Source: Syntrophales bacterium (lineage in GTDB: Bacteria > Desulfobacterota > Syntrophia > Syntrophales > UBA2210). From it: a stretch of 64,000 nt of DNA. The DNA lies in assembly GCA_963666365.2 (NCBI GenBank), contig CAXXNF010000002.1, positions 2,144,001 to 2,208,000 on the forward strand, read 5' to 3'. Below are positions 9,644-51,949 of this stretch, piece after piece. The notes under the pieces were generated by a model that did not search any database, was not told the DNA's origin, and worked only from the letters and a program-made list of their open reading frames with translations. Position 1 is the stretch's first letter. Each line of letters opens with the position of its first letter. The translations under genes were made by a program, and so were the position numbers.

Positions 9644-9741
9644 GGAAGTGCCAAGGTCACTGGTGGGCCTCCCGGACTTCAAATCCGGTGTGGGGGGCTA
9701 GTACCCTCCCAGGTGGGTTCGATTCCCATGCACTTCCGCCA
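9644..9741 (+). tRNA. selC: tRNA-Sec (UCA)
   Basis: GGAAGTG...CACTTCC acceptor stem ending GCCA; anticodon arm CCGGA-CTTCAAA-TCCGG; long variable arm; GGTTCGATTCC T-loop; TTGACA at 9605. Confidence 0.96.
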
Positions 9742-9806: not shown

Positions 9807-10877
9807 TTATTGTGATAAAATTGTGATAGATTTTTGCGCTTCCTGCAAAACCGATTGTCGCTCCCTTGAAGCTTCATCGACTTTTTTTGCTGCAGAACGG
9901 AGATCCTCCTCGTTTATAATGTTGTATCGGTCAAATACACTCCTTGTCTTGTGACCGCTGATCTTCATTGCAACAACATCGGGAACTCCTGCTCTCGTCA
10001 TGTTTCGGACAGCTGTCCTTCGATTGTCATGCAAAAATCTCCCCACCAGCCCGGTCTTTTTACAGGCAGTATTCCAAGCTGCCTGGTAATTTCGAATCTG
10101 CTGCCCATCCCTAAAGAAGACGTAGGGACATTCCGGGTACTTTGTCTCCCTTATCTTCCACTGCAATAGAATCGTATCATAGAGTTCTCCTGTAAGAAAA
10201 ATCTCCCGACTTTCGCCATTTTTCGTCAACTCTGGAGGTAGCGTGATTTTTTCTTCAAACAGGTTGGTATGACACCATCGCAGATTAAGGATTTCCGATT
10301 TTCGCATCCCGGTAAAGTAGGCAATGGTCAAAACCGGTTTCATGTGAGCGGGTAAAGCATTTCGTAAACGAACGTACTCATCGTACTCAAAAAACCCTTG
10401 CCTGGGTTTGCTCTCCTTTAATTTCGGGATAAAAGGGGGATTCAGTACCCTGGGAGGACTTTGTCTCATCCCCAGCACAAAAATCCTGTTCAAGGCCGAG
10501 AGTTCCCTATTAATCGTCCCATTACTGGCCTTTTCTTCCTTTCTCAAAAGAATATAGTCATCTATAATACTTGATGTGATCTCAACAACTTTCATCCCGC
10601 CAAAGAAAGCTCCTAAGTGCTTAAGGCTTAATTCCGCACGATCCAGCGACCGCCTCTCGCGAATCTTATAATCTTTGATGAGTATATTGCTCAAGTCATC
10701 GAATGTTACCTTATCGAGATTCATATCGGGACGCTTTCCTTCCGCAATCTCGCCTTTCAATTTGTCAAAGATCCGCTGGGCCAGTTTTCGGTCTTCCGTC
10801 TCCGTTGACCGTCTGTACTGTTGCCCCTGATGAGTAAAACTCATCCACCAGACCGTTCCTCTCTTATAGAGCCCCAT
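9807..10877 (-). CDS. Tyrosine recombinase/phage-type integrase
   Basis: Likely start [14 protein letters not shown]; catalytic motifs [31 protein letters not shown]. Confidence 0.95.
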
Positions 10878-11235
10878 CTCTGACCTCCTTTCCGAGGCCC
10901 TTGATCCGGTCTGATTTCCCGTGATCGTCATGGTAATACTTTCCCTTTTCCTCGTCAATGGTCTTGCGGATGACCTTATCGAAGTTCCCGCCATTCCTGC
11001 TGACGGGCCCTCTTCTTCTTTTCTGCACATGCGGGTCTTTCGTTTCTCCACGCCGGTGTTCTTCCAGCCAGTCATCGACCTCTTCCATCCTGAAGCGAAT
11101 AAGTCGCCCGATGCGGTAATGAGGTATGTCTCCCGCTTCAACCTTCGCATACAATGTTTTCACTTTAACCCCGAGATATGCCGAAAGCTCTGATATCGTT
11201 AGCAAACATTGGGGTTCCTTTACTTTTCCTTCCAT
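10864..11235 (-). CDS. Excisionase-like HTH protein
   Basis: [47 protein letters not shown]; overlaps the integrase start. Confidence 0.88.
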
Positions 11236-11582: not shown

Positions 11583-12287
11583 ATGATTAATGAAAAAAAA
11601 GACATGTCACGGAAAAAAGACCTGAAAATCCTTATTGAGGATTACCTGGAGCGGGACATTCTGCAAATGGAAACCCTTTTTGACAGGCGAAGACATGACG
11701 CAACGGCACTTTTCAGCAGAATCTTCCAACTGCTGGGAGCACCAGAAATTGATGCTGACGACCTGACGCCTTATGAATTGAAGGAAACTGTCCTGGAATG
11801 GCATGGGCTCTTGTCGCCAATCTGGGGGAAAATTAAGAATGCTTTTCTTGATTATCGTAACCATGTTCTTCCAGAAAAAAGAACGCACCAACGTATGATT
11901 ACATCGGCACAAAATCCTTTGTCACCACTCAGCAAATACAGGGATCTAGTGGAACACACACCTGCCTTTCCCGAGGAAAAAACCTACGCCATAAAAGCTC
12001 GACGAATGCCAGTCACTATAAATCTTTCCTTCTCTTCCGAAAAATTTCATATCTCCATGGAGGGTCTCAGAATACTCGATAATTTTCTTCTTCATCTTAA
12101 GGATGTGCCCATAGAGAGCTTATATCCCTGCGACCACTGCGGGAAGATCATTGTGGCAACCAGAAAGGGAAAACGATATCATGCGGGATGTGCCGCCAAA
12201 GCGAAACAGAAAGAACGGTGGGAAAAAGATCCTGAAGGATGTCGCGAGAAAGAACGACAGCGATATCGGGAACGAAAAAAAACATAA
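11583..12287 (+). CDS. Hypothetical protein with C-terminal CGNR-like Zn finger
   Basis: CDHCGKIIV...RYHAGC followed by a basic tail. Confidence 0.6.
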   Translation: MINEKKDMSRKKDLKILIEDYLERDILQMETLFDRRRHDATALFSRIFQLLGAPEIDADDLTPYELKETVLEWHGLLSPIWGKIKNAFLDYRNHVLPEKRTHQRMITSAQNPLSPLSKYRDLVEHTPAFPEEKTYAIKARRMPVTINLSFSSEKFHISMEGLRILDNFLLHLKDVPIESLYPCDHCGKIIVATRKGKRYHAGCAAKAKQKERWEKDPEGCREKERQRYRERKKT

Positions 12288-12454: not shown

Positions 12455-13543
12455 CTATTTCATTAAGTCCTTCTTCTGCTCTTCACTCCTCTTCTTGTAT
12501 GTCGCTGCATATGCGGCACATAAATTTGAGCAATACTCTTTATTAGCTTTGGGGAATTTTACGAAGAGCCTTTTCTGGCGACATGATTTGTTTCCGCAAA
12601 TGCCAAAATAATCGAGGCTGACGTGGGAAAACATCATCATAATTAGATGTGCTAACTCATTTTTCGCATTTGTAAACCTCTTTTTAAAGTTGTCATCGAG
12701 ATAAACATGCAGGCTGTGGTAATTGAAATCCTTTGTGGGCCTTTCTTTGCTCAAAATGTTCGGGAAATAGCATTCAATCAGTGAATATTCATCCAAGGCA
12801 ATCATTGCTTTAATGTCACTTATAATAGAATCGAGTAGTGAAAAAACATCTTCAACCCACAATTCAAATAACTTTATGTTGATCATAGGGTATCCGTTTC
12901 GTTTCTGATAGTGGAAATAGGCAACCACATCATTGGTTAACGTACGGAAAGCCTCTTGAACCTCCTGCTCAGAAACCCCGTCCAGAAGACTGTGCAGGAA
13001 ATCGTTGTCAGGTTTTTTAAACTCGCGTGCAAACTCTTCCTGCAACGTGTCCGCTTTGGCTTCCGAAAAACTTTCAATTCCCTTTTTCCTAAAATATAAC
13101 GACTCTAAAACTGCGTATTCTCTGATTTCCGGTTTTTCTAAAACACCGTCAGCAAGATTGAATGCCAGAACAACATCGTCGGGATTTGAAAAGTCAAAGT
13201 GGTCATTGTTATATATGTCGATAAAATGCTTTCGTGTGACTGGTGATGAAAACCAGGAATCAACCCGGTCGATGGAAGGTTTTTCCTGCAGATCGTACAA
13301 TGGTGCTCTTTTTCCTCGAAGGAATTTCCTGAAATTGACCACCATAGCCCTTGTCGGTCCCTCCCCCTCCTTTAAAAAGGGTGCATACAACATCCAAAAG
13401 GTTTGCATCTTGTCTATGAGGATAGCCCTCTTTTTCTGCGATCGTTTATTATCGTAATAAAATTGCTCGATTAGGAATTTCAGACCCCACAATTTTTGTG
13501 TCAGATGGCTATCGATCCCTTCCATGTTTAATGAACTCCTCAA
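12455..13543 (-). CDS. Hypothetical protein with C-terminal CGNR-like Zn finger
   Basis: CGNKSC...KEYCSNLC followed by a basic tail. Confidence 0.6.
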   Translation of the reverse strand: MRSSLNMEGIDSHLTQKLWGLKFLIEQFYYDNKRSQKKRAILIDKMQTFWMLYAPFLKEGEGPTRAMVVNFRKFLRGKRAPLYDLQEKPSIDRVDSWFSSPVTRKHFIDIYNNDHFDFSNPDDVVLAFNLADGVLEKPEIREYAVLESLYFRKKGIESFSEAKADTLQEEFAREFKKPDNDFLHSLLDGVSEQEVQEAFRTLTNDVVAYFHYQKRNGYPMINIKLFELWVEDVFSLLDSIISDIKAMIALDEYSLIECYFPNILSKERPTKDFNYHSLHVYLDDNFKKRFTNAKNELAHLIMMMFSHVSLDYFGICGNKSCRQKRLFVKFPKANKEYCSNLCAAYAATYKKRSEEQKKDLMK

Positions 13544-14137: not shown

Positions 14138-15202
14138 ATGTCGAATGACGAAAATATTACGAACTTAGAAGTAGAAAACGAAGTCATCACGGATGAGAAC
14201 AATCAGCATAACATTCCTTCAGTCGATGTAAATCATGACTCGATAGAGCCCGAATCAGAATACTGGTCCTATATGGGTACCGATAGTACCGCTGTTAACG
14301 AAATTAGAATATGCAGTGTCGGTGAGGAATTGGATGATGCGGAGGGTTACGGAGAGCGAATCAATGCCTGGACCGGGGAACTTGAGGCAAACCTCGTCGA
14401 GGGTAGAACAAGGCCCATCAATGATTTACTAAGCGATGGGGTTACCATGGTCCGTGAAATATCAGCAGACGCCAACAGCCTGATCAACTCCGCGAACCGT
14501 GATTTTGCGAACCGGGCTATTCAAATCGGTATTCTCTGCATCAAACTCAAGAGCCTGCTTTCGGAATCCAAGAGAAAATGGGGCCCCTGGGCAGAGGAAA
14601 ACCTCCCTTTCATAGCCCGACGCAACCGTGAAAAATATATGCGGCTTGCGAAACGTAAAGATTGCTGGCCCTTCAGCTTCCTGGGCGTTGACCGTCTCGA
14701 TGAGCTCTGCGCGGCGACCGAAAAGATGTCAGGCGAGGATAGAATTGGAGATCTCTTTCGCACCTACGGGATCCCCTTCGATGAAGGCTCGGAACTCAAC
14801 ATGACCGAATTTCGGCTCAAGATCGACACTGCCATCGCCAATGAACGGCTTATCAAAAAAAGCATAACAATTGATCCTGCCCTGGTCGAGGCCGTGATTC
14901 GCCAGGGAATCGAAGTTGACGGCGCCCTTATTCGTCGGTTGTCGGACGCAATAAGTTCCGGCGGAAATCCATCCATGCTGCTTGAAAAAATTTCCCTTGA
15001 GGGCGGCCAGGAGCCACAGAGCAAGGCACCGGAAACGCGAGTCAGAGATTTTAATAGTCTTTCCAATAAGTTGATCAAAACGATTGAATTCATTGCGGGA
15101 GACAGGGACCATCTGGACAGAATCGACAGGGAGAGCCTGGAGAGGCTCCTGGAAAAACTTCAGGGTATTCTGGAGCAATTTCAGCCTGAAACGGTAGCGT
15201 GA
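14138..15202 (+). CDS. DUF3102-like DNA-binding protein
   Basis: AIQIGILCIKLK...KWGPWAEENLPFIARRNREKYMRLA resembles the DUF3102 pattern; strong RBS. Confidence 0.55.
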   Translation: MSNDENITNLEVENEVITDENNQHNIPSVDVNHDSIEPESEYWSYMGTDSTAVNEIRICSVGEELDDAEGYGERINAWTGELEANLVEGRTRPINDLLSDGVTMVREISADANSLINSANRDFANRAIQIGILCIKLKSLLSESKRKWGPWAEENLPFIARRNREKYMRLAKRKDCWPFSFLGVDRLDELCAATEKMSGEDRIGDLFRTYGIPFDEGSELNMTEFRLKIDTAIANERLIKKSITIDPALVEAVIRQGIEVDGALIRRLSDAISSGGNPSMLLEKISLEGGQEPQSKAPETRVRDFNSLSNKLIKTIEFIAGDRDHLDRIDRESLERLLEKLQGILEQFQPETVA

Positions 15203-15274
15203 CTTTTAACAATCCGGCCCCTTACCGTCTCCGTAATGGTGGGGGGCCTTCACTTTTTATAAGGAGATACAATC

Positions 15275-16156
15275 ATGAAATTTTACCAAGCCTCCATGAG
15301 TTTGCGAATTCTGCAGAGGTACTGGAAAGTATTCGGTGAGAAAGTCAATATCCTGCTCTCTTTTGCCTATGTCGGCTCTGACTTTTCGAACATTGTCACC
15401 AACTGTCGGCACATGGTGAAGGGACTCGTTCTCGATTCCGGTGCGTGGTCCGTTGCCACGGGTGTTGCCGACCTTTCGCTGCAAAACTACATGGCGTTCA
15501 CAAAACTCCATGGTCATCGCTTCGATCGATATTTCAATTTCGACACAGACTTCAGTGATAGCGGCTTTGATCACAACGTAGCCCACCAGCTGATCATGGA
15601 GCGGGAGGGACTTTCCCCAGTTCCCGTGGTTCACAATCTCTTTGACGGTGAGATCGATTATTATGTTCAGTCCGGCAGATATGACTATCTCGCGTTGGGT
15701 TCGAGCCAGACAACCAATTATGACGACCTGGCCTATGGGGTTCATCGAATCAAGAAGGCAAAGGAGGACATGAAAATTCACTGGTTCGGCGGCGGCAGGT
15801 ATGACTGGCTCAGCAGATTGCCCATAACATCCTGCGACACATCATCGTGGGCATCACTCGGCAAGTTCGGTTTCATCATGTACTGGAACCAGCATCAACC
15901 GGGGCCGAACAAGGCTGACAAAATATACGTCAGCGGCACAGTGCGACCGGTAAAGGAAGATGAGTTTCTCTACACCACCTATCCCTGGAGAGAGGAACTT
16001 GACCGCTACATTTTCACGGTCTTTGGGCTCACCTTTCATGATCTCTGTGCCTACGAGGGAGCCTTCAACATGCAGCTGATCAATACCAGGTTCTATGCGG
16101 AAATGGAAAAACGGATCAATGAGGAGCGGACCCGCCGGGGAATCGCACTGGAATAA
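15275..16156 (+). CDS. TGT/DpdA-like base-exchange transglycosylase homolog
   Basis: LDSGAWS, FNFD, PVPVVH, YDYLALG, IHWFG and SCDTSSW match the ordered motifs of the TGT TIM barrel, including both catalytic Asp positions. Confidence 0.6.
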   Translation: MKFYQASMSLRILQRYWKVFGEKVNILLSFAYVGSDFSNIVTNCRHMVKGLVLDSGAWSVATGVADLSLQNYMAFTKLHGHRFDRYFNFDTDFSDSGFDHNVAHQLIMEREGLSPVPVVHNLFDGEIDYYVQSGRYDYLALGSSQTTNYDDLAYGVHRIKKAKEDMKIHWFGGGRYDWLSRLPITSCDTSSWASLGKFGFIMYWNQHQPGPNKADKIYVSGTVRPVKEDEFLYTTYPWREELDRYIFTVFGLTFHDLCAYEGAFNMQLINTRFYAEMEKRINEERTRRGIALE

Positions 16157-16359
16157 AAAACGCAGGAGTCTGCGCTTTTTAAATATTCAACGAAAGGAGG
16201 TATCATTATGGAATAACTATTATTGATACAAGTTGTTAGGACTACAATGGAAGTGGGACGTCTCCAGGAAGGGCGTCCCTTTTTTATTCCAGCACCATGA
16301 ACAGCGGAAGCATCCGGCCTGGCGGACTCCTAGAAAAAAATACAGAAAGGATAAAACAA

Positions 16360-16908
16360 ATGTCAGGAAAAGTCTTTGATGACCTAAAAAGAATTTTCGA
16401 ACAAATTGGCATCCAGATGGACGATGAAGATGAATTGGTTAATTCGGTTTATACCTTAGTGGGCTTTTATGATTACAGAAAAGTTGAAATGTGTGTGGCA
16501 CTCGAACATCATTACTGGCCCCACTTTTCCAAAATCTGGATTGGCGAAATAACGGTGCCAATAGAAAAGATATCTGCTGCCTATGAGCTTATTAGCAGAA
16601 TCAATTCACTGCTTGTATATGATCATTTTAAAATCGACCCCGAAAGTGGTGAAATCGGATTGTATGCTGGTTTTTATAGTGGAATGGTCGGATGCGACGA
16701 AGATGAAGAGGAATTAAATGATGGTTTGGATACATATAGTTTTATGCATATCCGTATGTTGATTTATCAGATGATCCGACATTTTTCCCTTTTTTCACCA
16801 TTGTTTAACACATTAACTAAAACCGATAAGCTTCCATCTGTTATCATGGAAGAATTTTGGAACAAACTTTCCAAAAAAAATAAAGCTGAATTGAGAGAGT
16901 ATCTCTAA
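16360..16908 (+). CDS. YbjN-like (T3SS-chaperone fold) protein, paralog 1
   Basis: VPIEKISAAYELISRINSLLVYDHFKIDPESGEI; start placed at MSGKVF after AAAGGA. Confidence 0.6.
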   Translation: MSGKVFDDLKRIFEQIGIQMDDEDELVNSVYTLVGFYDYRKVEMCVALEHHYWPHFSKIWIGEITVPIEKISAAYELISRINSLLVYDHFKIDPESGEIGLYAGFYSGMVGCDEDEEELNDGLDTYSFMHIRMLIYQMIRHFSLFSPLFNTLTKTDKLPSVIMEEFWNKLSKKNKAELREYL

Positions 16909-17127
16909 TAATCTTCCCAAAGGGACCATCGTGGAATACCGCTGGAATGAAAAACGCAGGAGTCTGCGTTTATTGAGAAAGGGGTGAGCGGATATATGAT
17001 TGCATGAAAACGGTTTTCGGTTAAGCAACTCAAATAATTCAGGTATACGCAATGATAAAGGGGATTGTCTCTCAAACGGGACGCCCCTTTTTTATTGCCA
17101 TTAATCAAAGAAAGGTAGGATTTTGAA

Positions 17128-18123
17128 ATGAATAAGATGAATAAGTTTACCGCTAAAGACAAACAGATCTTCGATGACATGAAGCAATGCGTCAAGGATC
17201 TCGGATTAAAAATTGTTGATGAGTATGTGGAGGAAGGGGTTCTTTTGGGAATGTCTACGTTTGAATACCCAGGTTACAACTTGGGGATCTTTTTTTCCTA
17301 TACCCCGTCAACGAATATGGCGTCGGTGGTTTTGGGGTATGCAGATATACCGGTTGAGAAGCTTCCAGCTCTGTATGATTTGCTAAACCGCATTAACGGA
17401 CACCTGATAGGCAACCACTTTTCTATCAATCCTGAACTTAGGATTCTTCTCATGCATTCAGGCATGGAAGTGACTGGCTACTTCCTCGATAAAGCGGCAT
17501 TTATGGGTATCCTTGGACATGATCTCGGCTCAGGACATACGTTTATGCCCTTGATTGGCAAGGTCCTGGCGAGTGATCAAACACCCCAGGCGGTGATGGA
17601 GGAATTTATGAAACAAAAACACAAGATGCCTCGTACCCTGTTTATGCAGGATGGGACGCTCAGAGTGGAACAGGAGGCAGAGGATCTTCCATTCTTCATA
17701 CATGTGTATAAAGATATGCCTGCTTTTCCCACCCACACCCATGGCCTCACAGAACTGGGCATGCCAGAGTTTTTAATGGATCCTCTTTCATTTGGTCAAA
17801 AGGGAACGTACACGCTCGTCATTGTGTCGTACAACTATTTCAGCTGTCCCGAGAATAAAGCTAAGCTGGAAGCCATTATGAATGGGAAAATTGTCAAATT
17901 GACGCACCGTGACCTGGCGCCTGACGGATGCGGTGAAGACCCTTACGTCTATTGCTACCGCAGGGTCTATCCAGAGTTCGAGATGGTCAGGCAAGCATAC
18001 AACATCGACGAGGAAAAGGAACAATCAGACGCCTCTCCGGAAGTGTGTTTTGTCCAGATCTACGTTGAGGGAGATGATCATGTCTTGACTGACGATTACT
18101 ACAAGGGCGGGGTTATGTGGTAG
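17128..18123 (+). CDS. YbjN-like protein, paralog 2, with extra C-terminal domain
   Basis: IPVEKLPALYDLLNRINGHLIGNHFSINPE; C-terminal HTHGLTELGMPEF domain. Confidence 0.6.
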   Translation: MNKMNKFTAKDKQIFDDMKQCVKDLGLKIVDEYVEEGVLLGMSTFEYPGYNLGIFFSYTPSTNMASVVLGYADIPVEKLPALYDLLNRINGHLIGNHFSINPELRILLMHSGMEVTGYFLDKAAFMGILGHDLGSGHTFMPLIGKVLASDQTPQAVMEEFMKQKHKMPRTLFMQDGTLRVEQEAEDLPFFIHVYKDMPAFPTHTHGLTELGMPEFLMDPLSFGQKGTYTLVIVSYNYFSCPENKAKLEAIMNGKIVKLTHRDLAPDGCGEDPYVYCYRRVYPEFEMVRQAYNIDEEKEQSDASPEVCFVQIYVEGDDHVLTDDYYKGGVMW

Positions 18124-18220
18124 GGTAATCAAAAACTAATACATGACAAAGGGGATCGATCGTGCCCGAGATTGATCCCCTTTTGTCATTTCAGCACTTT
18201 CAGAAAGGAAGGAAAAGACA

Positions 18221-19249
18221 ATGAGTAAAAAGAAAAATAAACAAGGCAATAAGGTCGTAAGGGACTTGAAGGAATGTTTCCGGTCCTTCAATCTACCCGT
18301 CAATAAACTCAAAGGCAATCATGACGATCCCATGAATGTCGTCTTCACCTCTCAGCTCTGTAATGACCAGGCCTGCGCATTTGTAGCCGTTACGTTTGAT
18401 AGGTTTAGAGGATATATCGGCATGGACGCCGCCGCCCTTCGCTTTAAAATTCCTCAAGAGAGAATGGGAGAGACATTGACGCTGTTAAATCTGCTCAATG
18501 AAATCAGGCCTATCTGCAGCTATTCGGTTTGCCCCTGCTGCAATACCGTGTCATATAGGACAGCTTTGTTTCTCTCTGGTGAGACCCTTCCTGTGAGTAA
18601 ATTCAGAAGGCTTATCCAGGATATGCTTGAAGAGACATACCTCTGTTTCCCGTTGATATCCAAAGTGGCCACAGATGGCAATCCCAAGGATCTTCATGCT
18701 CGGTTTATGGATGACCATAAACATCTGATGAGCATGGAAAGTAAGTTGTCCCAAAAAGCAATAAAGCAGATTCTTGATGACATGGGGCAGGTTATGGCCA
18801 ACCTCAAAATACCGATTCATGAGAGGCTCTCTGACGGTTTTGTCACGGATCTCATGCTTGAAGGCATGGATTTTCCGGTCCGTATCGGCGTTACACTGGT
18901 AAAAGAATATGAATTGGTCACGCTGAGCGTTGGACCAGCCTTTACCGTTCCAGATGACAAGATTCCCGTAATGTTGGATTTGGTGAACCGGATCAATAGA
19001 GCGTCCGAGCCAGATCATATGTTCATTAACCAGCAATCAAAGCGGGTGATCCTTGTCAACGGGATTCTGATCGACAATGGCACCTTTGATAAAAGGGAGT
19101 TAGAATTGTCGCTTCAAATCCTGCTGGGAAAAGGAAGGTTAGTCTTTCACACTATCAATGAGCAGCTTTCTTCCAATGAAAGCCCAGAAGATCTTTTCGA
19201 AAAGACGATAAAATATCACGAGAAGATCATCGAGAATCAGAACGTTTAG
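18221..19249 (+). CDS. Double YbjN-like domain protein, paralog 3
   Basis: Two copies: IPQERMGETLTLLNLLN and VPDDKIPVMLDLVNRIN. Confidence 0.6.
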   Translation: MSKKKNKQGNKVVRDLKECFRSFNLPVNKLKGNHDDPMNVVFTSQLCNDQACAFVAVTFDRFRGYIGMDAAALRFKIPQERMGETLTLLNLLNEIRPICSYSVCPCCNTVSYRTALFLSGETLPVSKFRRLIQDMLEETYLCFPLISKVATDGNPKDLHARFMDDHKHLMSMESKLSQKAIKQILDDMGQVMANLKIPIHERLSDGFVTDLMLEGMDFPVRIGVTLVKEYELVTLSVGPAFTVPDDKIPVMLDLVNRINRASEPDHMFINQQSKRVILVNGILIDNGTFDKRELELSLQILLGKGRLVFHTINEQLSSNESPEDLFEKTIKYHEKIIENQNV

Positions 19250-19937
19250 TTGATTCTGGAAACCCACACCCTGTGGGTGTGGTCATGTGGGATTGGCTGT
19301 GCCAGTCCCGAATGGGTATGGCCAAATAGGCCGCCCACTGCTATCCTTGCTCAGAGTTGTTAGCCACAACAAAAGAGCAAGGAGGAAGCAGTGAGCAGAT
19401 TTCACAAGTTATCACATACGATATGGCATTGTCAGTACCATATTGTATGGGTTCCGAAATACAGATACCGGATTCTGACAGGTGCTGTTCGGGATGCGAC
19501 AGAGGCGGGGATTCAAGCGATATGCGGTTATGCAGGGTGCGAAGTAATCGAGTTAAACGTACAACGTGATCATGTACACCTTGTGGTAATGATACCGCCC
19601 AAGCTGTCGATATCGAATTTGATGGGTCGCGTTAAGGGACAGACATCAATGAAGATGTTTCATCAATTTCGGGAATTGCGGAAGAAGCCCTATTGGGGGA
19701 ATCATTTTTGGGCAAAAGGATATTGTGTTGACACAGTTGGACTGAATGCCGAGATGATTCGGAAGTATGTCCGGTATCAGGAGAAAAAAGAGAAGCAGGA
19801 AGAGCAACTGAGGTTAGATTAAGAGCACAGAGACATGCGGCACAACTCGCTATGCCTCGCCCCCTCTGGGGGCAGAGGCACAATCCCCCTATGGGGGATA
19901 AATTAAAGCCGCGTCCTGTGGGCGCGGATTATTTACA
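19250..19937 (+). mobile_element. IS200-type element (IS200/IS605 family), no tnpB
   Basis: Subterminal hairpins CCACAC-CCTGTGG-GTGTGG and CCGCG-TCCTGTGGG-CGCGG flank tnpA; inserted between a stop codon and its terminator. Confidence 0.85.
19391..19822 (+). CDS. tnpA: Y1 HUH transposase
   Basis: YHIVWVPKYR, DHVHL, FWAKGY, IRKYVRYQ. Confidence 0.95.
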   Translation: MSRFHKLSHTIWHCQYHIVWVPKYRYRILTGAVRDATEAGIQAICGYAGCEVIELNVQRDHVHLVVMIPPKLSISNLMGRVKGQTSMKMFHQFRELRKKPYWGNHFWAKGYCVDTVGLNAEMIRKYVRYQEKKEKQEEQLRLD

Positions 19938-20129: not shown

Positions 20130-20315
20130 ATGAAGACAGCCTGTTTTACAAAAGCGTTAACCGTAGCCTTTACCGAAGACATTTACCTGAAAATCAAGGA
20201 AATAACCGATGAGAAAAATATTTCCATGGGGGAATGGGTGCGAATCGCAGCGGAAAGGGAATTGAACAATAACGAGTATATCAAATGTATTTCTGGAGGA
20301 ATCAAGCATGACTAA
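20130..20315 (+). CDS. Ribbon-helix-helix-like small regulator
   Basis: beta-helix-helix pattern; paralog of 37413-37592; overlaps the primase start. Confidence 0.6.
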   Translation: MKTACFTKALTVAFTEDIYLKIKEITDEKNISMGEWVRIAAERELNNNEYIKCISGGIKHD

Positions 20316-22647
20316 ATTTATATCAGACAAAGAGACTTTCATTACAATGGCATCTGATTTTTTCAACGAACTTTTTGAACCAGCGTTTAATAGCGAGTGC
20401 GGTGATATCGAAATCAGGACATTCAAACCATCACCTCAACAGAACTTTTACAAATCGGAGCATGAAGCCGCTGAAAGAGCGTTCGATTTATGCAACCGGG
20501 GCATTGATGTGTATTTCGGAGTGAATCCGCGAACCGGCAATGCTGGAAAAAAAGAGAACATCCAGTATGTGAGTGCATTCCACGCGGAAATCGATTACGG
20601 CGAAACAGGTCATAAAAAAGATACACCCCATAAGACGTATGAAGACGCCTTAAATGCTATAGAATCCTTCAACCCGGAACCAACCATTATTATCCACAGC
20701 GGCGGCGGCTTTCATTGTTACTGGGTATTGAGCAATCCCGTAAAGGTCGATGCCATTGGATGTCAGATTCTGGAAAGCATCAATAAAAATCTGTCGGAAA
20801 AACTGGGAGGCGATCGGGGAACACAGGACATTACACGGGTGCTGCGAGTGCAAGGTACATACAATTTTAAAATAATGGACAATCCGCGACCAGTAATGCT
20901 CATATCCAACAGTCATAAGAAGTATGAGTATGAGGAGTTCAGGACATTCATACCCACCGAACATGCAGTCGCAAGCGGCATACCAGACACCGGCAAAAAT
21001 CTTCAGACACACCGCCCAGTTGCGCATGTTGAGCCCTCACAACTGTCGTTTGATATAGAGAACTTGCCTGTTTCGAGTAAAATAAAGTCGCTTATTAAGA
21101 ATGGCAATGACGGCAGGTATACATCAAGAAGCGAAGCAGACATGGCGGTGGTAATTGCTCTGGTGAATAAAGGGGTGAATACAGAAAATATCAAACAGAT
21201 ATTTCTCAACTGTGGCATCGGTGAAAAATACAGGGAGCATCGCTCAAAAGACGACTATTTGAACCATACCATTGAACAGGCAAAAAAATACTCTGATCTT
21301 ACCGAAGAAGAGAGGACAGACCCGCTTTTCATTACAAACGCGCTTTTAAAAACAGATGGGAGATATCGACTCAACATTCTGAAATTTCAAGAATACATGG
21401 TCAGAAAATACCGTATAGTCATTCTTGACCGTGAACAGGCAATGTTCCGCTATACAGGTAAATGCTATGAACAGATAACAGATAAGGCCCTTAATAATCT
21501 CTGCCAGAGGGAACTGAAGGACCATAGAAATCTCTTTTCCCGGTCGTCTCTTTCAGAATTCATCCATTACGCCGTGGGAGAAACACTGGCCGACAGCGAG
21601 AAGGTGAAGCAGGAGCAGGTCAATTACCTGACAATGCAAAACGGCATCTATGAATTTGACCGTGGGAGATTATTGCCCCGTACCCCAAAAATCTTCACAA
21701 CGAATCTTCTGCCTTTTGAATACGACCCCAATGCTAAATGCACCAGATTCATACAGTTTCTTAATGAAGTATTCGAAGGTGAGCAGGAAAAGATCCGTTT
21801 CGTACAGGAAGCTGTGGGGTACATCTTTCACAAGTCCATTCCCACCCCTGCGGTCTTTTTCCTTATCGGGTCAGGCAGCAACGGCAAGTCGGTTTTCATT
21901 AACACCATATCCAGCCTGGTAGGAAAGGAGAATACAAGCAACGTCAGCTTCAACCTCCTTTCCGACGAGACCTACATTCTTGAGCTTTATCAGAAGATGA
22001 TCAACATCTCCGGTGAAACCCCTCATGCAAAAACGATCGATACAGATGTGATTAAAGCGGTGACGGCTGGCGATTGGGTTACGGGAAGAGAGCTTTACAA
22101 ACCGCCCATGAAATTCCGACCTTTTGCTAAAAGCTTTTTAGCTATGAATAATCTGCCCACAATAAAAGATACCTCGCATGGTATGTGGCGGAGAATATGG
22201 GTTGTCACTTTTCCCAAAAAATTTGAAGAACATGAGATGGATCGACAGCTGGAAGAAAAACTCACGAAGGAGTTATCAGGCATCTTTAACTGGGCGCTTG
22301 AGGGGTACAGTAGATTAAAAGGAAACGGTTTTTCTTTACAGGAAAGCGATTCCATGAAACTGGAGAAGAAGTCTTACCGGATAAGTGCCGACAGTGCCAG
22401 AGAATTCATTAGTGAATATCTTGCTCCTTCGAGTGATGAAAATGCACGAATTAAACTTAGTGTGCTCTATAACCACTATAAAGACTGGTGTAATTCACAA
22501 AGATCAAAAGATGTTAAAAATAAAAATGAATTCAAAATAATACTTGAAGATATGAAATATTATGTAGACAACTCTTCAAAAGACAATAATCAAGTTCATG
22601 CATTCAATGTTGTTTTTAAAGAGAATATAAAAAATATTATTGTATAA
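20308..22647 (+). CDS. P4-family primase-helicase (RepB-like primase + D5/SF3 helicase)
   Basis: HSGGGFHCYW, RVLRVQGTYNFK, SRSEAD, Walker A GSGSNGKS, MNNLP, GMWRRI. Confidence 0.9.
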   Translation: MTKFISDKETFITMASDFFNELFEPAFNSECGDIEIRTFKPSPQQNFYKSEHEAAERAFDLCNRGIDVYFGVNPRTGNAGKKENIQYVSAFHAEIDYGETGHKKDTPHKTYEDALNAIESFNPEPTIIIHSGGGFHCYWVLSNPVKVDAIGCQILESINKNLSEKLGGDRGTQDITRVLRVQGTYNFKIMDNPRPVMLISNSHKKYEYEEFRTFIPTEHAVASGIPDTGKNLQTHRPVAHVEPSQLSFDIENLPVSSKIKSLIKNGNDGRYTSRSEADMAVVIALVNKGVNTENIKQIFLNCGIGEKYREHRSKDDYLNHTIEQAKKYSDLTEEERTDPLFITNALLKTDGRYRLNILKFQEYMVRKYRIVILDREQAMFRYTGKCYEQITDKALNNLCQRELKDHRNLFSRSSLSEFIHYAVGETLADSEKVKQEQVNYLTMQNGIYEFDRGRLLPRTPKIFTTNLLPFEYDPNAKCTRFIQFLNEVFEGEQEKIRFVQEAVGYIFHKSIPTPAVFFLIGSGSNGKSVFINTISSLVGKENTSNVSFNLLSDETYILELYQKMINISGETPHAKTIDTDVIKAVTAGDWVTGRELYKPPMKFRPFAKSFLAMNNLPTIKDTSHGMWRRIWVVTFPKKFEEHEMDRQLEEKLTKELSGIFNWALEGYSRLKGNGFSLQESDSMKLEKKSYRISADSAREFISEYLAPSSDENARIKLSVLYNHYKDWCNSQRSKDVKNKNEFKIILEDMKYYVDNSSKDNNQVHAFNVVFKENIKNIIV

Positions 22648-22649
22648 TG

Positions 22650-23000
22650 TAATACTTTTTTCCCAAAAGATTAAAAAGAGATTAATTCCCAGCATAAACA
22701 TTAATCAGTAATAGCTGAATATAATAAAATGGTTAAACCGAAAGATTAATAGATTAATTCTTTTTTATATTATTTGTTGCAAATAAAAAACAATATTATA
22801 AATATAATATAAATTATAAATAAAAAATAAAAGATAGGAAATTACATTAATCTGTTAATTTTTACCAGAACACAGTAATAATATTAATGATTTTAGATTA
22901 ATGGATTGTATATTTATTTAATCTCTTTTTAATCTGACTGTTTCCTCAGAGAAATATTGTCCTTCATGAGTTTTTCAAAAAATAGTACAATAATAGTAAT
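22650..23000. other. AT-rich putative replication origin
   Basis: Very AT-rich, with many GATTAA/TTAATC copies in both orientations, directly after the primase. Confidence 0.55.
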
Positions 23001-23200
23001 GTAAGAACCCTTAAGCAAATTTTGGCAAAAAAAAGAAAAGACAAAACAATATGAAATAGTTTACCTTCAAATATTGAAACTTAAAACCAACAACACTGAA
23101 TTAAAACGACTCCTTTTCCGGTAATTCGATTGATCCCCGATACTGTTTTGACTTTAAAAGAGCATCTTAAAGAACTTATAAATGCCCAGAAAAACCGAAA

Positions 23201-23590
23201 ATGACTATCACTGCACGTTTCCTTCAACACCCCCTGGGAGAGCTTTTTGCTCATAACCTTCTATCGAAGAGCTATGACTGGTTGGATAACCGGTTTTATC
23301 GCCTCCCCAATAATGCCCAGGTTTTCTATAGAAGGTTTTTGATCCACAATGACTATAAGAGTATCCCCCTGAAAATCGAGACGATTATAGAAGCATTAAA
23401 CCTCGTTGACAAAAATATCACCAACCTGACCGGAACAATAGAAACGAATATCCTGAAGCCGCTCATGGACCAGGGATTAATCGATTCCTATGAGAAAAAG
23501 AGGGATGGTCTCTACGGTTTGAAGTTCATAATTAAGCGATCGAAAAATTCAGTACCCGTTGAGATTGACCTTCAACAGCCGTCAAGTTGA
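23201..23590 (+). pseudogene. C-terminal fragment of a plasmid-type Rep initiator
   Basis: Winged-helix-like sequence, broken upstream frame, iterons immediately after the stop. Confidence 0.45.
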
Positions 23591-23733: not shown

Positions 23734-24612
23734 AATACCGGAACCCCTCCCTTTGGGTCGGGTTTCCTCGGGGACCATATAGTTATATTTTTGTAGTTAG
23801 GGAAAAATGGTTATGGAGATATGAATATTCATACAAGAAGATTGGTCATGCATTACTAAAGGAATTGGTCAAGAGGAAATTATGGGGTAATAGATTTATA
23901 GTAATGAAGAATGGGTAAACATTACTTGTGAGATTGGTCGTACACACCATGGGGTTTACTTGTAAGAAATACAAAACTATAACAAATAAAAAATGGTGAG
24001 AGAAGAAGAGTGGTCGGTTGCTGCTTTTATCTACTGTTTACTTCATGCTGCTGGTGGGTATACTGAAACAATACCCTCTGAAGTCTATCTCATGTCTTCC
24101 AGGAAAGAAGATCTGTGGGAAAGTGGAATGGATCGCGAAGGGTTCCCATGGTAGTAGCGTCCGTTATTACAGCAGGAGTAATGGGTCCCGGTTTCGCGCG
24201 CCGCCTGATGGGATCGTGAGCCTCATTGAGGGAGACCGTCCGTACTGTCGAGCATTCACCATCCCGGGACTTCTCAGGTTGTCTCTCCGGTGAGTTCTGC
24301 CGCATCGTATATATGGGGTTGGATTATGAATGAACGAGTGCTGACATCAAAGCAGGAAGGTTTGAGAGGGGAGGGCAAATACGCAGGAGTCTGCGTTTTT
24401 AGCTGTTTTCACCATGAGCATCGGGCAGAATGGATGGACGTATTGAACATTCTCCGAGACTATCGAAAGTACCTCTGCAAATAAACGAGATCATTCCGAA
24501 ATAACGACCGTTTTTCGCCGTTCTTGATATTTACAATGAATTTTGGGCGAATTCGGGAAGGCGTTGGAATGAAAGGGATATGTGTTGCGGAGTACACCTC
24601 TAAAGCCTCAGC

Positions 24613-27955: not shown

Positions 27956-28130
27956 GACGGTATTTTTTTGCCGGCTTTCAAGGAAACCTGAGGGCCTTTA
28001 ATTAAGTATACTGTTTGAATGCATAAGTAAGAAAGATTGCAGGAAACCTCCAGGCGGGTCACAATGTTTGTAAATGCAAACTGCTGGGTCGAGATGAGTT
28101 CGCCCAGAAATGAACCACAAGGAGGTTTCC

Positions 28131-29162
28131 ATGGACAGATCTTACTACATAGGGTTGGATATTCACAAGAAGGTAATCGCATATTGTATCAAGGCCCTTG
28201 ACGGATCCTTGATTGATCAGGGAAAGATAGGGGCAGACAGGCTGGCCTTGGGAGTATGGGTGAAGGGTCTGCCGGGACCCTGGATAGGAGCTATGGAAGC
28301 GACCCTCTTCACCGGATGGGTGTACGACTTTTTGAAACCCCATGCCGTTGCCCTGAAGGTGGCTCATCCAGCGATGCTCCAGGCCATAACAGTCGCCAAG
28401 AAGAAGAATGATCGAGCCGATGCGGAAAAGATAGCCGATCTACTGCGGGTGAATCTTCTGCCTGAATGCCACATGCTCTCGGAAGAGATTCGCGAACTGG
28501 GGAGAATATTACGATATCGCAACCACATAGTTCGGACGGCAGTGAAGATTCAGAACAAGATGTCGGGCCTGCTCATGGAGGTTGGGGTCAGCTACAGCAA
28601 AAAACGCCTGCACGGCAATAAATACTTTCATGAGCTACTCGAACGGGTCGATGAGATTCCTCCTTCGGTTAATGAGCTTCTTCAGTTGAGCCGTTCCAGC
28701 TATGAGATGTTTCGCTCTTTCCAGAAGCGGCTTGTTGAGACGCTTCGTACCGACAGCCTGATCAGTGGGCGGGTGCATCGTCTCATGACCATCCCCGGAG
28801 TAGGCGAGATAACAGCTCTCACTTGGATATTAGAGATTGGCGATCCTGACCGATTCTCATCCATTCGGAAGGCAGTCAGTTACTGTGGTTTGTGCAGCGC
28901 GCAAAGGGAATCAGCGGGGAAGGAACAGCGAGGTCCCATCTCCAAGAAGAGGAACAAGCACCTGCAAACCATGCTCATTGAGGCAGCAAAGGTTGCGCCG
29001 CACTGGAACGAACAACTGGCAATCGTACATGAACGAGAATTGAAGAAGGGTAACCGGAACAGGGCAACGCTTGCCGTTGCGAGAAGGCTTGTTGCCTACA
29101 TGTTGGCCGTTGACAGGAAAGGAGCAGATTTCAATCTGCCCTCTGAAATACGGGCAGCATAA
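28131..29162 (+). CDS. IS110-family recombinase/transposase
   Basis: YIGLDIHKK, AMEAT, KNDRADA (DEDD), TIPGVG, QRESAGK. Confidence 0.95.
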   Translation: MDRSYYIGLDIHKKVIAYCIKALDGSLIDQGKIGADRLALGVWVKGLPGPWIGAMEATLFTGWVYDFLKPHAVALKVAHPAMLQAITVAKKKNDRADAEKIADLLRVNLLPECHMLSEEIRELGRILRYRNHIVRTAVKIQNKMSGLLMEVGVSYSKKRLHGNKYFHELLERVDEIPPSVNELLQLSRSSYEMFRSFQKRLVETLRTDSLISGRVHRLMTIPGVGEITALTWILEIGDPDRFSSIRKAVSYCGLCSAQRESAGKEQRGPISKKRNKHLQTMLIEAAKVAPHWNEQLAIVHERELKKGNRNRATLAVARRLVAYMLAVDRKGADFNLPSEIRAA

Positions 29163-30349: not shown

Positions 30350-32122
30350 CCTAAATTCCCGGCTTAATGTAACGAGGTTGGCGGGGCGATCCCCATTGCC
30401 TCATAAAGTTCGATTTGTTTCTTTGTCACTTCACCTACGCGAAGTTCATACCCCGGGTACTCAAAGCATTCAATGATGTCCAGTTCATCCAGAAGCTCAT
30501 GCATCGTATATTTTTTGAAAAGATTTCCATCTTGCATCTTCTTTTTGAGATAAGAAAGAAAAATAAGCGCGATAAATTCCACAAACAGCTTGCCGTCCAG
30601 ACTTTGATCGGAGGACACCGCCATGCGGTTGAAATTCAGTCGCTCTTTCAGATTTCCGAAGGCCTTTTCCACAAGATCCTTGTTCCGGTATATTTCCAGG
30701 GCTGCGATAGGTTCCCTGACCTCGTTGCTGAGTAACACAAAAAATCCATAATTCTTTCGTGCATCAAGAAGAGCATCCTCTCTGGCAATAACCTTTGTCC
30801 CTCTTACCGGGGTGGTGGTGACATCAAAATATTTGGCGTACAGCCTGTCGTGTTCCGGAAGGGTTGCGCCGCCTTCCAATTCCTCCTGCAGACGACAAAG
30901 CAGGGCGTTGAAGTTCTTTTCATCCTCCAATGCCCGTTCACTGTTAAAATAGAGGTGCATATACATCCGGCGTTTTCCCTTAAGAATATCGCCCTTGTAA
31001 GGACGCTCCTGAGAATAGTCCCATTCTATCTTCGTGGTGCAGGCATAAAGATCATGTTTCTGATTATAGTGTGTCCAGGTACGGAGTGAATCGCGCACAT
31101 TATCCAGTTCGGTCTTTACGAATTTCAACGACTTCTTTGCGGCAATCAGGAATTTCAAATGATTCCGGTACAGGTCGTTGATATTGTCCTCGCTGTAGAA
31201 TCCCCTGTCCATAACCAGCTTGATCTTGTCGTACCCAAAGAAATCGATGTCAGCCAGAAGGTTCTTCACTGTCTTCACATCGGGAATGTTGCCTGCAAGT
31301 TTTCGGTAGTAAAAAGGAAGATTGGATTCCTCCCCGAACAATAACGCGAGATTGATCTGCGGAAGCGGCTCATGATCCTTGTTCATCCCGTATCTGACCT
31401 GGCTTAAGCATCTGGAATAGCTCGATATGGAGGTCGTATCATAGGCCCAGTACTCTTTCTCGACTCGCCGTCTTCCCTGCAGCCGGAAAAACCGATTCTT
31501 GTCGTCTTCGGTAATAGATGCGAACAACTCACTGCTCCTCTGAGAAGGGATGTTTCTGCCGTAAGGATGCCTATGCGTGGCTGCCCATTTCGGAAAACGG
31601 CTCAAGGGGTTCCTGTCCTCCATGATGAGGTAGTATGCCGTGGACAAAATCTGTTTGTATGTGCCGGGAAAGCATTTTTTCAAATCCGCGGCAATCCCGA
31701 GCTTCTCGCCGATGGCGTCAAAAAGGTATGTTGCCCCGTAAAAACTGCGGGATACATTCTCGATAGGGACCGGACCTCTTTTATGGACTTTGTCATGATT
31801 GCCGGGATCAGTGGCAACCACCCTTTTTCTGGTCGGGATGATCTCCTTTGTCTCGGGATCAACCCGTCCGATGCATCTACGTGTGGCACGAGACTGCTTT
31901 TTCTCTTTATCCCAGTAGGATAGCGATTCATAGGCATAGGTAATTCCCGTCTGCTTGCTGGTCTGATACACAATCGCCGCCATTGAGCACCCCCCCCTTT
32001 TTTATCATCGTTACATTATGCTTAACATGTAACGAGACTCAAATCAAGGAAAAATGCTCCGATCTATTAATGTTTATTCGGCTTTTATGCCTTTCATCGT
32101 TACATTATACCGGGAAGGCAGG
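30350..32122 (-). mobile_element. IS1634-family element (transposase 30364-31983)
   Basis: DDE motifs YDTTSISS, MDRGFYS, VEKAF; ends CCTAAATTCCCGG / CCGGGAAGGCAGG; TATTAT duplication at 30344-49 and 32123-28. Confidence 0.92.
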
Positions 32123-51822: not shown

Positions 51823-51949
51823 TCAATCCCCTGTATCTCAATTGAATCACCAGTCAGGGCGGGACGCAGACCCGGGGGATTGGTGCGTCCTGTCCACTCC
51901 CATTGTCAAAAACACAGGATGCTGCGCATCTCAGGAAGGAGAAGAACTC

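Follow-up and report, generated by a model that had tools for sequence, protein, structure and literature searches.

A DpdA-like transglycosylase gene, its cargo slot and a probable recombination scar on an integrative island of a Syntrophales bacterium

We analysed a stretch of 64,000 nucleotides (nt) from a Syntrophales bacterium (contig CAXXNF010000002.1 of assembly GCA_963666365.2; hereafter, the window), in which a gene for a DpdA-like guanine transglycosylase is preceded by a gene for a helical protein that we call A354 and followed by three YbjN-like genes (Y1, Y2 and Y3), with an orphan TGT-like gene end between Y1 and Y2. All features lie on the forward strand unless stated otherwise. 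Our main finding, which we consider probable and state with moderate confidence, is that this segment consists of a core operon, a terminator with a leader behind it and a slot in which cargo genes are swapped, and that the duplicated gene end is a recombination scar. The anatomy of the segment, its conservation, its mosaic structure and the recurrence of similar gene ends in related loci are direct observations. As for function, the constant core would be a two-gene operon of A354 and a phage-DpdA-type guanine transglycosylase. The enzyme would exchange guanine in DNA for a 7-deazaguanine base drawn from the queuosine pathway of the host, and A354 would be its obligate partner, acting for example in targeting or DNA binding. 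The operon would close with a conserved terminator hairpin and be followed by a leader with a Shine-Dalgarno-like (SD-like) site, a mini open reading frame (mini-ORF) and a second terminator; the variable cargo slot would come behind the leader, with ribbon-helix-helix (RHH)-type and primase genes at its far side.

The enzyme gene ends ...ERTRRGIALE* and is directly followed by AAAAACGCAGGAGTCTGCG. Its last 21 nt and the terminator-type hairpin behind them (16136-16180, with the stem CGCAG/CTGCG at 16162-16175) recur at 16930-16974, with 84% identity over 45 nt and a spacing of 794 nt. An exact 19-mer is found at 16156 and 16950, a copy with one mismatch at 24377 and a match with three mismatches at 51908; the count expected for the 19-mer from 100 shuffles is 0.00. 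The second copy belongs to the orphan (16918-16974), in which the final 33 or so nt of another TGT-like allele (...RGIPLE*) are followed by the hairpin and an SD-like GAGAAAGGGG, and which reads QRDHRGIPLE* in a frame that is otherwise closed upstream. A duplicated TGT-like gene end behind the first YbjN gene had been noted in the original prediction, and the length and identity of the repeat, together with a 19-mer not attributable to chance, confirm it.

The two sides of the orphan have different relatives among the related loci, of which 10 were taken from genomes and 80 from metagenomes (one further candidate, L011, was dropped as a non-relative on account of a match of only 45 residues at 33% identity). 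Between 14468 and 16878 the window runs colinear with locus L012, where the leading cargo gene has 59% identity to Y1, and starting at 16933 it runs colinear with L013, L014 and L001, in which the enzyme gene is directly followed by orthologues of Y2 and Y3. Over 53 nt, the orphan region shares 92% identity with L013's intact junction, compared with 66-68% for the neighbouring coding DNA. A contig of 12,614 nt from a sequencing run of a separate study (X4) agrees with the window over 16930-19249 apart from 29 differences, and over 16277-16336 apart from 4. In this contig, 1858 other letters replace the 593 nt of the window that hold Y1, and the match resumes exactly at 16930. The join itself falls at GGGACC, which resembles the opening of the terminator that follows the L012 cargo as well as CGGACC in the enzyme-gene end; microhomology at the join is possible on this single case.

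In the reading we favour, an arm carrying A354, the TGT-like gene and an L012-like Y1 would have been joined to about 33 nt of the TGT-like end of another element. The L013-like block to the right would have brought along its own leader, Y2 and Y3, so that one cargo gene would now be stacked before the residents. The conserved gene end, hairpin and leader would serve as patches of homology for repeated swapping and stacking of cassettes, and the pathway, we infer, would be illegitimate or short-homology joining with later homologous exchange. A simpler history would be an in-situ tandem duplication of a segment that began at the TGT-like 3' end and included a YbjN gene, after which the paralogues diverged; direct repeats that bracket one YbjN-like gene, with another YbjN-like gene next in line, are what it would leave behind. 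However, Y1 and the N-terminal domain of Y2 are only 25% identical, as against 84% for the non-coding repeat, and for that reason an old tandem duplication does not explain the repeat. Y1 has its orthologue in the L012 cargo whereas Y2 and Y3 have theirs in L013-type cargo, the orphan reads RGIPLE like other alleles where the resident gene reads RGIALE, and the X4 contig has the same right-hand block behind a different cassette. We give a tandem duplication, contradicted as it is by the colinearity data, almost no credence.

Orphan enzyme-gene ends are not confined to the window. When the loci are grouped into lineages at 90% or higher enzyme identity and the 47 lineages with at least 700 nt of downstream sequence are counted, orphans are found in three, with lengths of about 20, about 33 and about 72-73 nt. 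Loci L033-L038 and L087 carry an orphan of 73 nt, which shares 96% identity with the intact end in L061 (as measured for L033), and the cargo family f6, which follows the orphan in this group, follows the intact gene end in L059-L061. L032 shares its enzyme lineage and its orphan (87.5% identical) with L033 and has three cargo genes before the orphan instead of one, and in L068 an orphan of about 20 nt lies behind a cargo gene for a PF01702 TGT. Junctions are thus repeated at homologous loci, and the genes before the orphan differ between L032 and L033 as they do between the X4 contig and the window. Since the orphan lengths differ, there is no fixed crossover point, and the idea that the gene end is a dedicated docking site does not hold up in that form. 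Three further strings that resemble the gene end are chance matches to the search pattern with no hairpin behind them, namely RRIALE* in L053 and L054, where it falls inside the leading cargo gene, RARIPLE* in L004, L035 and L037, where it lies upstream of A354, and VRIPLE* in L039, L040 and L063, where it lies far downstream.

The gene end and its hairpin are conserved features of the family. Enzyme genes of the family end ...INEERxRRGIPLE* and carry, within a few bases, a GC hairpin flanked by A and T tracts. The hairpin of the first copy in the window folds at -9.9 kcal/mol (z -3.6). Its six-pair stem is kept in all 48 aligned junctions, with compensatory changes in three of the six pairs, and both the sequence and the structure of the hairpin persist among lineages with proteins that are only 47-64% identical. 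A third copy of the hairpin, with one mismatch, lies at 24377-24395 with no TGT-like end before it, and the CGCAGGAGTCTGCG hairpin likewise stands as a plain terminator 6-8 kb downstream in different genomes (L005:14777-14790 and L007:14156-14169, besides the copy at 24377-24395), so that the islands appear to share a house terminator. The hairpin behaves as an ordinary terminator, given that changes in its stem are compensatory and that the same hairpin occurs elsewhere in the islands.

Behind the hairpin, the sequence reads as an SD-like GGAGG with a two-codon mini-ORF (ATG GAA TAA, 16208-16216; together 16196-16216), and a second, stronger terminator-like hairpin with a T run, of repeat family D10, precedes Y1 at 16255-16288. 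The orphan is followed by the same succession: a mini-ORF at 16984-17007 behind its SD-like site (ATG ATT GCA TGA at 16996-17007, with an in-frame GTG at 16984) and a second terminator-like hairpin of family D10 before Y2 at 17060-17096. The RNA folds of the two whole leaders have z values of -4.2 and -2.3. An SD-like site and a mini-ORF of 2-7 codons, often ATG-codon-stop, between two terminator hairpins just past the TGT-like stop were observed at 16196-16216 and 16974-17007 in the window and in L003, L007, L014, L019, L023, L028, L039, L041, L063 and L068. In many lineages this layout of SD-like site, mini-ORF and second terminator is independent of the cargo. The mini-ORF recalls the two-codon bar minigenes of phage lambda, and it could gate read-through into the cargo.

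Conservation of this kind might also be expected if cargo were captured site-specifically, in the manner of an integron, with the hairpin as a folded recombination site for the tyrosine recombinase of the island. The conservation of hairpin sequence and structure despite the divergence of the proteins would fit such a scheme, as would the direct repeats on either side of the Y1 cassette and the orphan boundary at 16930, which the window and the X4 contig have in common behind different cassettes. The varied orphan lengths, however, place the joins at differing positions upstream of the hairpin. The Y1 orthologue of L012 is followed by an unrelated terminator, with neither an orphan nor a copy of the hairpin. 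Moreover, the hairpin also serves as a plain terminator far from TGT-like ends, and its compensatory stem changes and flanking A and T tracts are like those of intrinsic terminators. We regard integron-like capture as quite unlikely. A related and more elaborate proposal is that gene end, hairpin and mini-ORF leader form a purpose-built module that captures, stacks and regulates cargo, an analogue of an integron platform guided by homology or structure, in which YbjN partners would retarget or restrain a nucleobase-exchange enzyme composed of A354 and the DpdA-like protein; this we consider rather unlikely.

The slot itself varies widely among the related loci. The common gene order is A354, enzyme gene, a variable stretch, a small RHH-type gene and then a primase-helicase or PolA gene. 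Across the 47 lineages, the variable stretch holds from none to four or more cargo genes of many families, and it is empty in five. Downstream content, whose comparison among homologous loci the original prediction had called for, therefore differs from locus to locus rather than being fixed. YbjN-like cargo is present in 19 of the 47 lineages and is the first cargo gene in 17, which makes YbjN-like genes the commonest occupants of the slot, though in a minority of lineages. The remaining lineages have PF01702 TGT genes, genes for S-adenosylmethionine (SAM) methyltransferases, radical-SAM/SPL-like genes and genes of unknown families. Thus, co-occurrence of YbjN genes with the TGT-like gene, which had been expected, is seen in these 19 lineages and fails in the other 28, and the slot is not specific to YbjN modules as had been supposed. 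Among the slot genes are canonical PF01702 TGTs with the CxCxxC motif in some loci and SAM methyltransferases and radical-SAM/SPL-like genes in others (L006:12828-13931, L068:1755-2855, L008:9478-10731, L081:678-2024 and L047:5936-6877), a hint that further enzymes of nucleobase modification may be accommodated there. No known defence family was found in the cargo: PADLOC gave no match for 22 of 24 cargo and backbone proteins of the related loci, and the other two are weak methyltransferase matches to mad2. We see in the slot a hotspot at which cargo recombines, and probably not a dedicated docking machine.

The three YbjN-like genes of the window carry four YbjN-type domains in total, as originally described, with Y3 recognised by Pfam and Y1 and Y2 through a profile and through orthologues. 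A profile built without Y1 or its relatives matches Y1 with an E-value of 2.5e-20, Y2 with 3.1e-34 and both domains of Y3 with 2.9e-77. Y1 (16360-16908), the cassette that precedes the orphan, is a single-domain gene with no Pfam match. Its longest frame opens at 16297, but its start is most likely 16360, giving 182 residues, because 18 relatives are 182-198 residues long and cover 90% of the longer frame. Y2 (17128-18123) joins a YbjN-like N-terminal domain to a different C-terminal domain (approximately residues 168-331). Its N-terminal half scores 13.7-15.1 bits against Pfam YbjN, under the cut-off of 22, whereas its orthologues in L001, L015 and L028 pass with 33.5, 33.4 and 26.7 bits; it is 52-53% identical to the first cargo genes of L001 and L005. 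The C-terminal domain of Y2 (17629-18123) also occurs free-standing, as a 182-residue ORF that is 54% identical (L003:10613-11161). Two Atlas leads stayed below the counting level and were set aside, from Y2 to YbjN clusters (0.76) and from its C-terminal half to DUF4261/DUF4262 (0.77), families that occur mostly in viruses. Y3 (18221-19249) has two YbjN domains and matches Pfam YbjN (PF10722) in two stretches with an E-value of 2.1e-7 and 31.7 bits, above the same cut-off. Orthologues of Y3 come after orthologues of Y2 in L001, L013-L016, L018, L028 and L067. Y1 and Y2 are acidic, with isoelectric points of 5.0, and none of the three proteins has a PADLOC match.

A354 and the enzyme might be thought to use these proteins as exchangeable adaptor or immunity subunits, with the end of the TGT-like gene as the dedicated site at which they dock. 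The rank of YbjN-like genes as the commonest cargo and first gene, and the recurrence of orphans at the enzyme-gene end, speak for this proposal. The YbjN/type III secretion system (T3SS)-chaperone superfamily binds peptides, according to PMC9503650, and the predicted disorder of the first 64 residues of A354 would offer a segment of the type that such chaperones may bind. Yet 28 of the 47 lineages lack a YbjN-like gene and five lack any cargo, which leaves no room for obligate subunits or immunity partners; slot and leader are used by unrelated genes as well; a terminator separates enzyme gene and cargo in all 48 aligned junctions; and Y2 and Y3, once rearranged, follow a TGT-like allele with which they did not evolve. 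When Y1, as the partner under test, was co-folded with A354 and the TGT-like protein, the score was 0.00 and the mark 0.32, which neither supports nor opposes binding. No result here links the YbjN-like proteins to the enzyme as subunits, and we think the proposal unlikely. By analogy with the superfamily, it is a possibility that they are peptide-binding factors that act on proteins of the host or of rival elements.

The enzyme gene (15275-16156) encodes a DpdA-like guanine transglycosylase of 293 residues with a TGT fold and without the zinc motif. The protein matches phrog_887, annotated as queuine tRNA-ribosyltransferase, with an E-value of 1.1e-21. Its AlphaFold2 model has a mean predicted local distance difference test (pLDDT) score of 90.2, and the best 50 Foldseek matches listed are bacterial TGTs throughout (best E-value 1.3e-6, probability 1.00). 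In TGTs, the catalytic residues lie within the motifs TDSGG and FDCV. In 27 members of the family D54-S55-G56 and D188 are invariant, and these line up with the aspartates of both motifs in the host TGT and with the phage homologue. In tblastn searches, 148 phage records match the enzyme at 25-29% identity, 26 of them over at least 80% of the query, and the best of these, from Providencia phage PSTCR4, adjoins genes for YhhQ, QueE, Gat-QueC, QueD and FolE. The zinc motif CxCxxC...H is missing from the enzyme and the PSTCR4 homologue and present in the host TGT and the cargo TGTs of L006 and L068. These results bear out the assignment, already made in the original prediction, of the enzyme to the TGT/DpdA-like group, in which its nearest relatives are phage DpdA genes. 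A first search for relatives collected 200 proteins at an E-value of 0.001 or better, none with a Pfam domain or an informative name; the enzyme has no NCBIfam match, and a scan of IMG/VR found no relative of it. The host, in which the enzyme gene is single-copy, carries QueC elsewhere in its genome along with a canonical TGT. On these grounds the enzyme is most likely a phage-DpdA-type transglycosylase that uses a deazaguanine made by the host.

The same fold can, however, be put to other uses. The VIA comparison aligned 238-262 residues at Z-scores of 15.6-16.5 and root-mean-square deviations of 3.4-3.9, and in this range of scores ArcTGT, bacterial TGT, human TGT and Cap10 are tied. Cap10 (9ntn_B, Z 15.7 over 238 residues) belongs to type IV of the cyclic-oligonucleotide-based antiphage signalling system (CBASS) and is, according to bioRxiv 10.1101/2025.04.06.647259, a TGT-family enzyme remodelled for a modified protein N-terminus. 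The enzyme of the window, which is small and without the zinc motif, could by this comparison be no DNA modifier at all and instead handle a protein-conjugated nucleobase, with A354 or cargo proteins as substrates. The island, however, has neither a QueC-like Cap9 nor a CD-NTase, and PADLOC gives no match. None of A354, Y1, Y2 and Y3 starts with Met-Gly, unlike the modified CdnD described in that preprint, and sequence similarity points to phage DpdA genes in deazaguanine clusters. We judge a Cap10-like role to be very unlikely.

A354 (14138-15202), a conserved helical protein of 354 residues and of no known family, has no match in Pfam, PHROG, NCBIfam or PADLOC. It had been called DUF3102-like, a label that we could not confirm: there is no match to DUF3102 (PF11300) even at an E-value of 10 or with the core alone, and among 33 homologues a single one matched, at an E-value of 0.027 and below any cut-off. 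Any kinship between A354 and DUF3102 would be a remote relationship. The AlphaFold2 model (pLDDT 78.7) consists of helices only. Foldseek returned nothing at an E-value of 0.001 or better and generic helical-hairpin matches only, and the wide VIA comparison gave an uninformative best Z-score of 7.7 over 67 residues. In 78 of 91 sequences the gene immediately upstream of the enzyme gene encodes an A354 homologue, and the remaining 13 have no more than 442 nt of upstream DNA; the gap between the two genes is 51-80 nt. No phage homologue of A354 was found. In one locus (L008:6983-8881), frameshifts split both the A354 and the TGT-like gene, so that the core pair decays together there.

The region is best explained as the left arm of an integrative, self-replicating island of about 15 kb at a tRNA-Sec gene. 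This gene (9644-9741; found by ARAGORN, 76.3 bits with Rfam RF01852) bounds the island on the left and is probably where it integrated, and housekeeping genes lie to its left. A tyrosine integrase gene on the reverse strand (9807-11150; Pfam Phage_integrase 2.2e-17, plus Arm-DNA-bind_2) starts 66 nt from it, and its product is 66% identical to the integrase of L007. Two further ORFs of the island, at 11583-12287 (forward strand) and 12455-13543 (reverse strand), each close with a stretch rich in Cys and then a tail rich in Lys and Arg; relatives of neither were found among L001-L010, and for this reason the left part of the island also looks variable. To the right of the slot, the backbone genes come in the same order as in the related loci: a small gene of family f11 (20130-20315), one member of which matches RHH_1, and a primase/D5-type helicase gene (20308-22647; Pfam DUF5906 and D5_N). 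Between Y3 and these RHH-primase genes, an IS200-type transposase gene (19391-19822; Pfam Y1_Tnp 2.7e-40) is inserted at the right edge of the slot. The IS200 copy is missing at the corresponding place in the X4 contig, and as this near-identical contig diverges after 19249, the insertion is recent. Many short contigs from runs X1-X4 pile up at 19259-19400, in the IS200 flanks (19250-19400) of a multi-copy element. Further right, a stretch of 129 codons at 23201-23590, next to very AT-rich DNA at 22650-23200 (GC 0.34), is a remnant of a backbone protein of about 400 residues in L004-L007. Since this is all that survives of that gene, the island looks partly decayed. Transposase genes of the IS110 family and of DDE type lie just past the island (28110-29162 and 30364-31983), and the zone beyond it is generally insertion-prone.

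Several results weigh against the explanation we favour. Orphan, hairpin and SD-like site are conserved well above the flanking genes, and they may have a function beyond that of a scar. There is no larger second TGT fragment in the 91 sequences, the orphans all being about 72-73 nt or shorter; such uniformly short orphans are not obviously the outcome of random illegitimate joins and could point to a specific mechanism or to selection. YbjN-like genes are enriched in first position (17 of 47 lineages), for which this reading does not account. With regard to the enzyme, the tie among TGT, ArcTGT and Cap10 scores means that the fold alone does not fix the class of substrate. The protein has no match to the Pfam TGT family PF01702 (E-value of 0.1 or better), the PADLOC models miss it, and a sequence profile of its family searched against the PDB yielded only chance-level VapC matches. 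No 7-deazaguanine synthesis genes are found among the ORFs of the island, and DNA modification is a putative activity of the enzyme. Finally, searches for a right attachment site (attR) came up empty: the terminal 26 nt of the tRNA are present a single time, and when the tRNA region was compared with the remainder of the window by short-word BLAST, nothing beyond matches of 10-15 nt emerged. The island accordingly looks eroded at its right end.

Five known systems and families bear comparison with the locus. Work by Hutinet and colleagues in 2019 reportedly concerns phage DpdA and 7-deazaguanine modification of DNA. DpdA-family enzymes are taken as signature genes of such modification according to Cui et al. 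(2023, PMC10516641). The enzyme of the window resembles phage DpdA in its full-length homology at 25-29% identity, which extends along about 90% of the enzyme, its TGT fold, both aspartates and, as in PSTCR4, the lack of a zinc motif. It differs in being encoded on an integrated, primase-bearing island rather than a phage, in having no adjoining FolE, QueD, QueE or QueC, and in being preceded by A354, for which no phage counterpart was found; no phage record exceeds 29% identity to its family, which has no Pfam TGT match. The bacterial Dpd system, as Gedara et al. (2023, PMC10164549) describe it, has a DpdA that needs the adjoining DpdB ATPase, lies on a genomic island and draws on host preQ0. 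A TGT-family enzyme with a second protein encoded beside it, a genomic island and host preQ0 are points of likeness to that account. However, A354 is all-helical in its model where DpdB is an ATPase (no search was aimed at ATPase motifs in A354), and no dpdC-K-like genes are present. PADLOC carries Dpd models, and neither A354 nor the enzyme matches them.

The slot is reminiscent of the hotspots of P4-like satellites and P2-like phages, which, according to a 2026 NAR article (PMC13586616), have a conserved backbone around a rapidly swapped slot, short non-coding remnants of recombination, an integrase, a primase and a tRNA-gene site. The window element, in contrast, is from another family, one found in Desulfobacterota-type metagenome-assembled genomes, no known defence family was recognised in the cargo by PADLOC, and its scars are recognisable ends of the flanking backbone gene itself. 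In the polymorphic toxin loci of contact-dependent inhibition (CDI) and Rhs systems, arrays of orphan toxin tips and immunity genes arise by recombinational displacement, and the window shares with them the pattern of gene end, small gene, orphan gene end and small gene. Here, however, the orphan is a conserved gene end of about 72-73 nt or less that encodes no domain, and the small genes are not obligatory, as the five lineages without them attest; the pattern mimics polymorphic-toxin orphan arrays but fails their defining features. Members of the YbjN/T3SS-chaperone superfamily (PF10722) resemble the cargo proteins in that Y3 and the Y2 orthologues pass Pfam and in that the proteins are acidic, whereas here they are island cargo in one-domain, two-domain and fused-domain forms. 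AmyR, which belongs to the YbjN superfamily, is said to have a known structure.

The enzyme represents a new branch close to phage DpdA, accompanied by a new protein that is probably its obligate partner. To our knowledge, neither the pair of A354 and enzyme nor the island family has been described before; a literature search that combined DpdA with island and satellite terms gave no DpdA paper among the matches listed, and no search was aimed at the pair or the island family. A distinct and well-populated branch is thereby added to the DpdA family, one that resides on integrative, primase-bearing islands of anaerobic bacteria and not on phages, always in the company of the helical protein A354. 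The slot provides a clean and datable record of how the cargo of a mobile element is stacked and swapped, in which the parental intact junctions can still be recognised, and its YbjN-like, f10, f12, f6 and f21 families are candidates for functions in the conflict between element and host. If the enzyme does modify DNA, the hosts of these islands may have modified genomes that go unnoticed in studies by sequencing and restriction.

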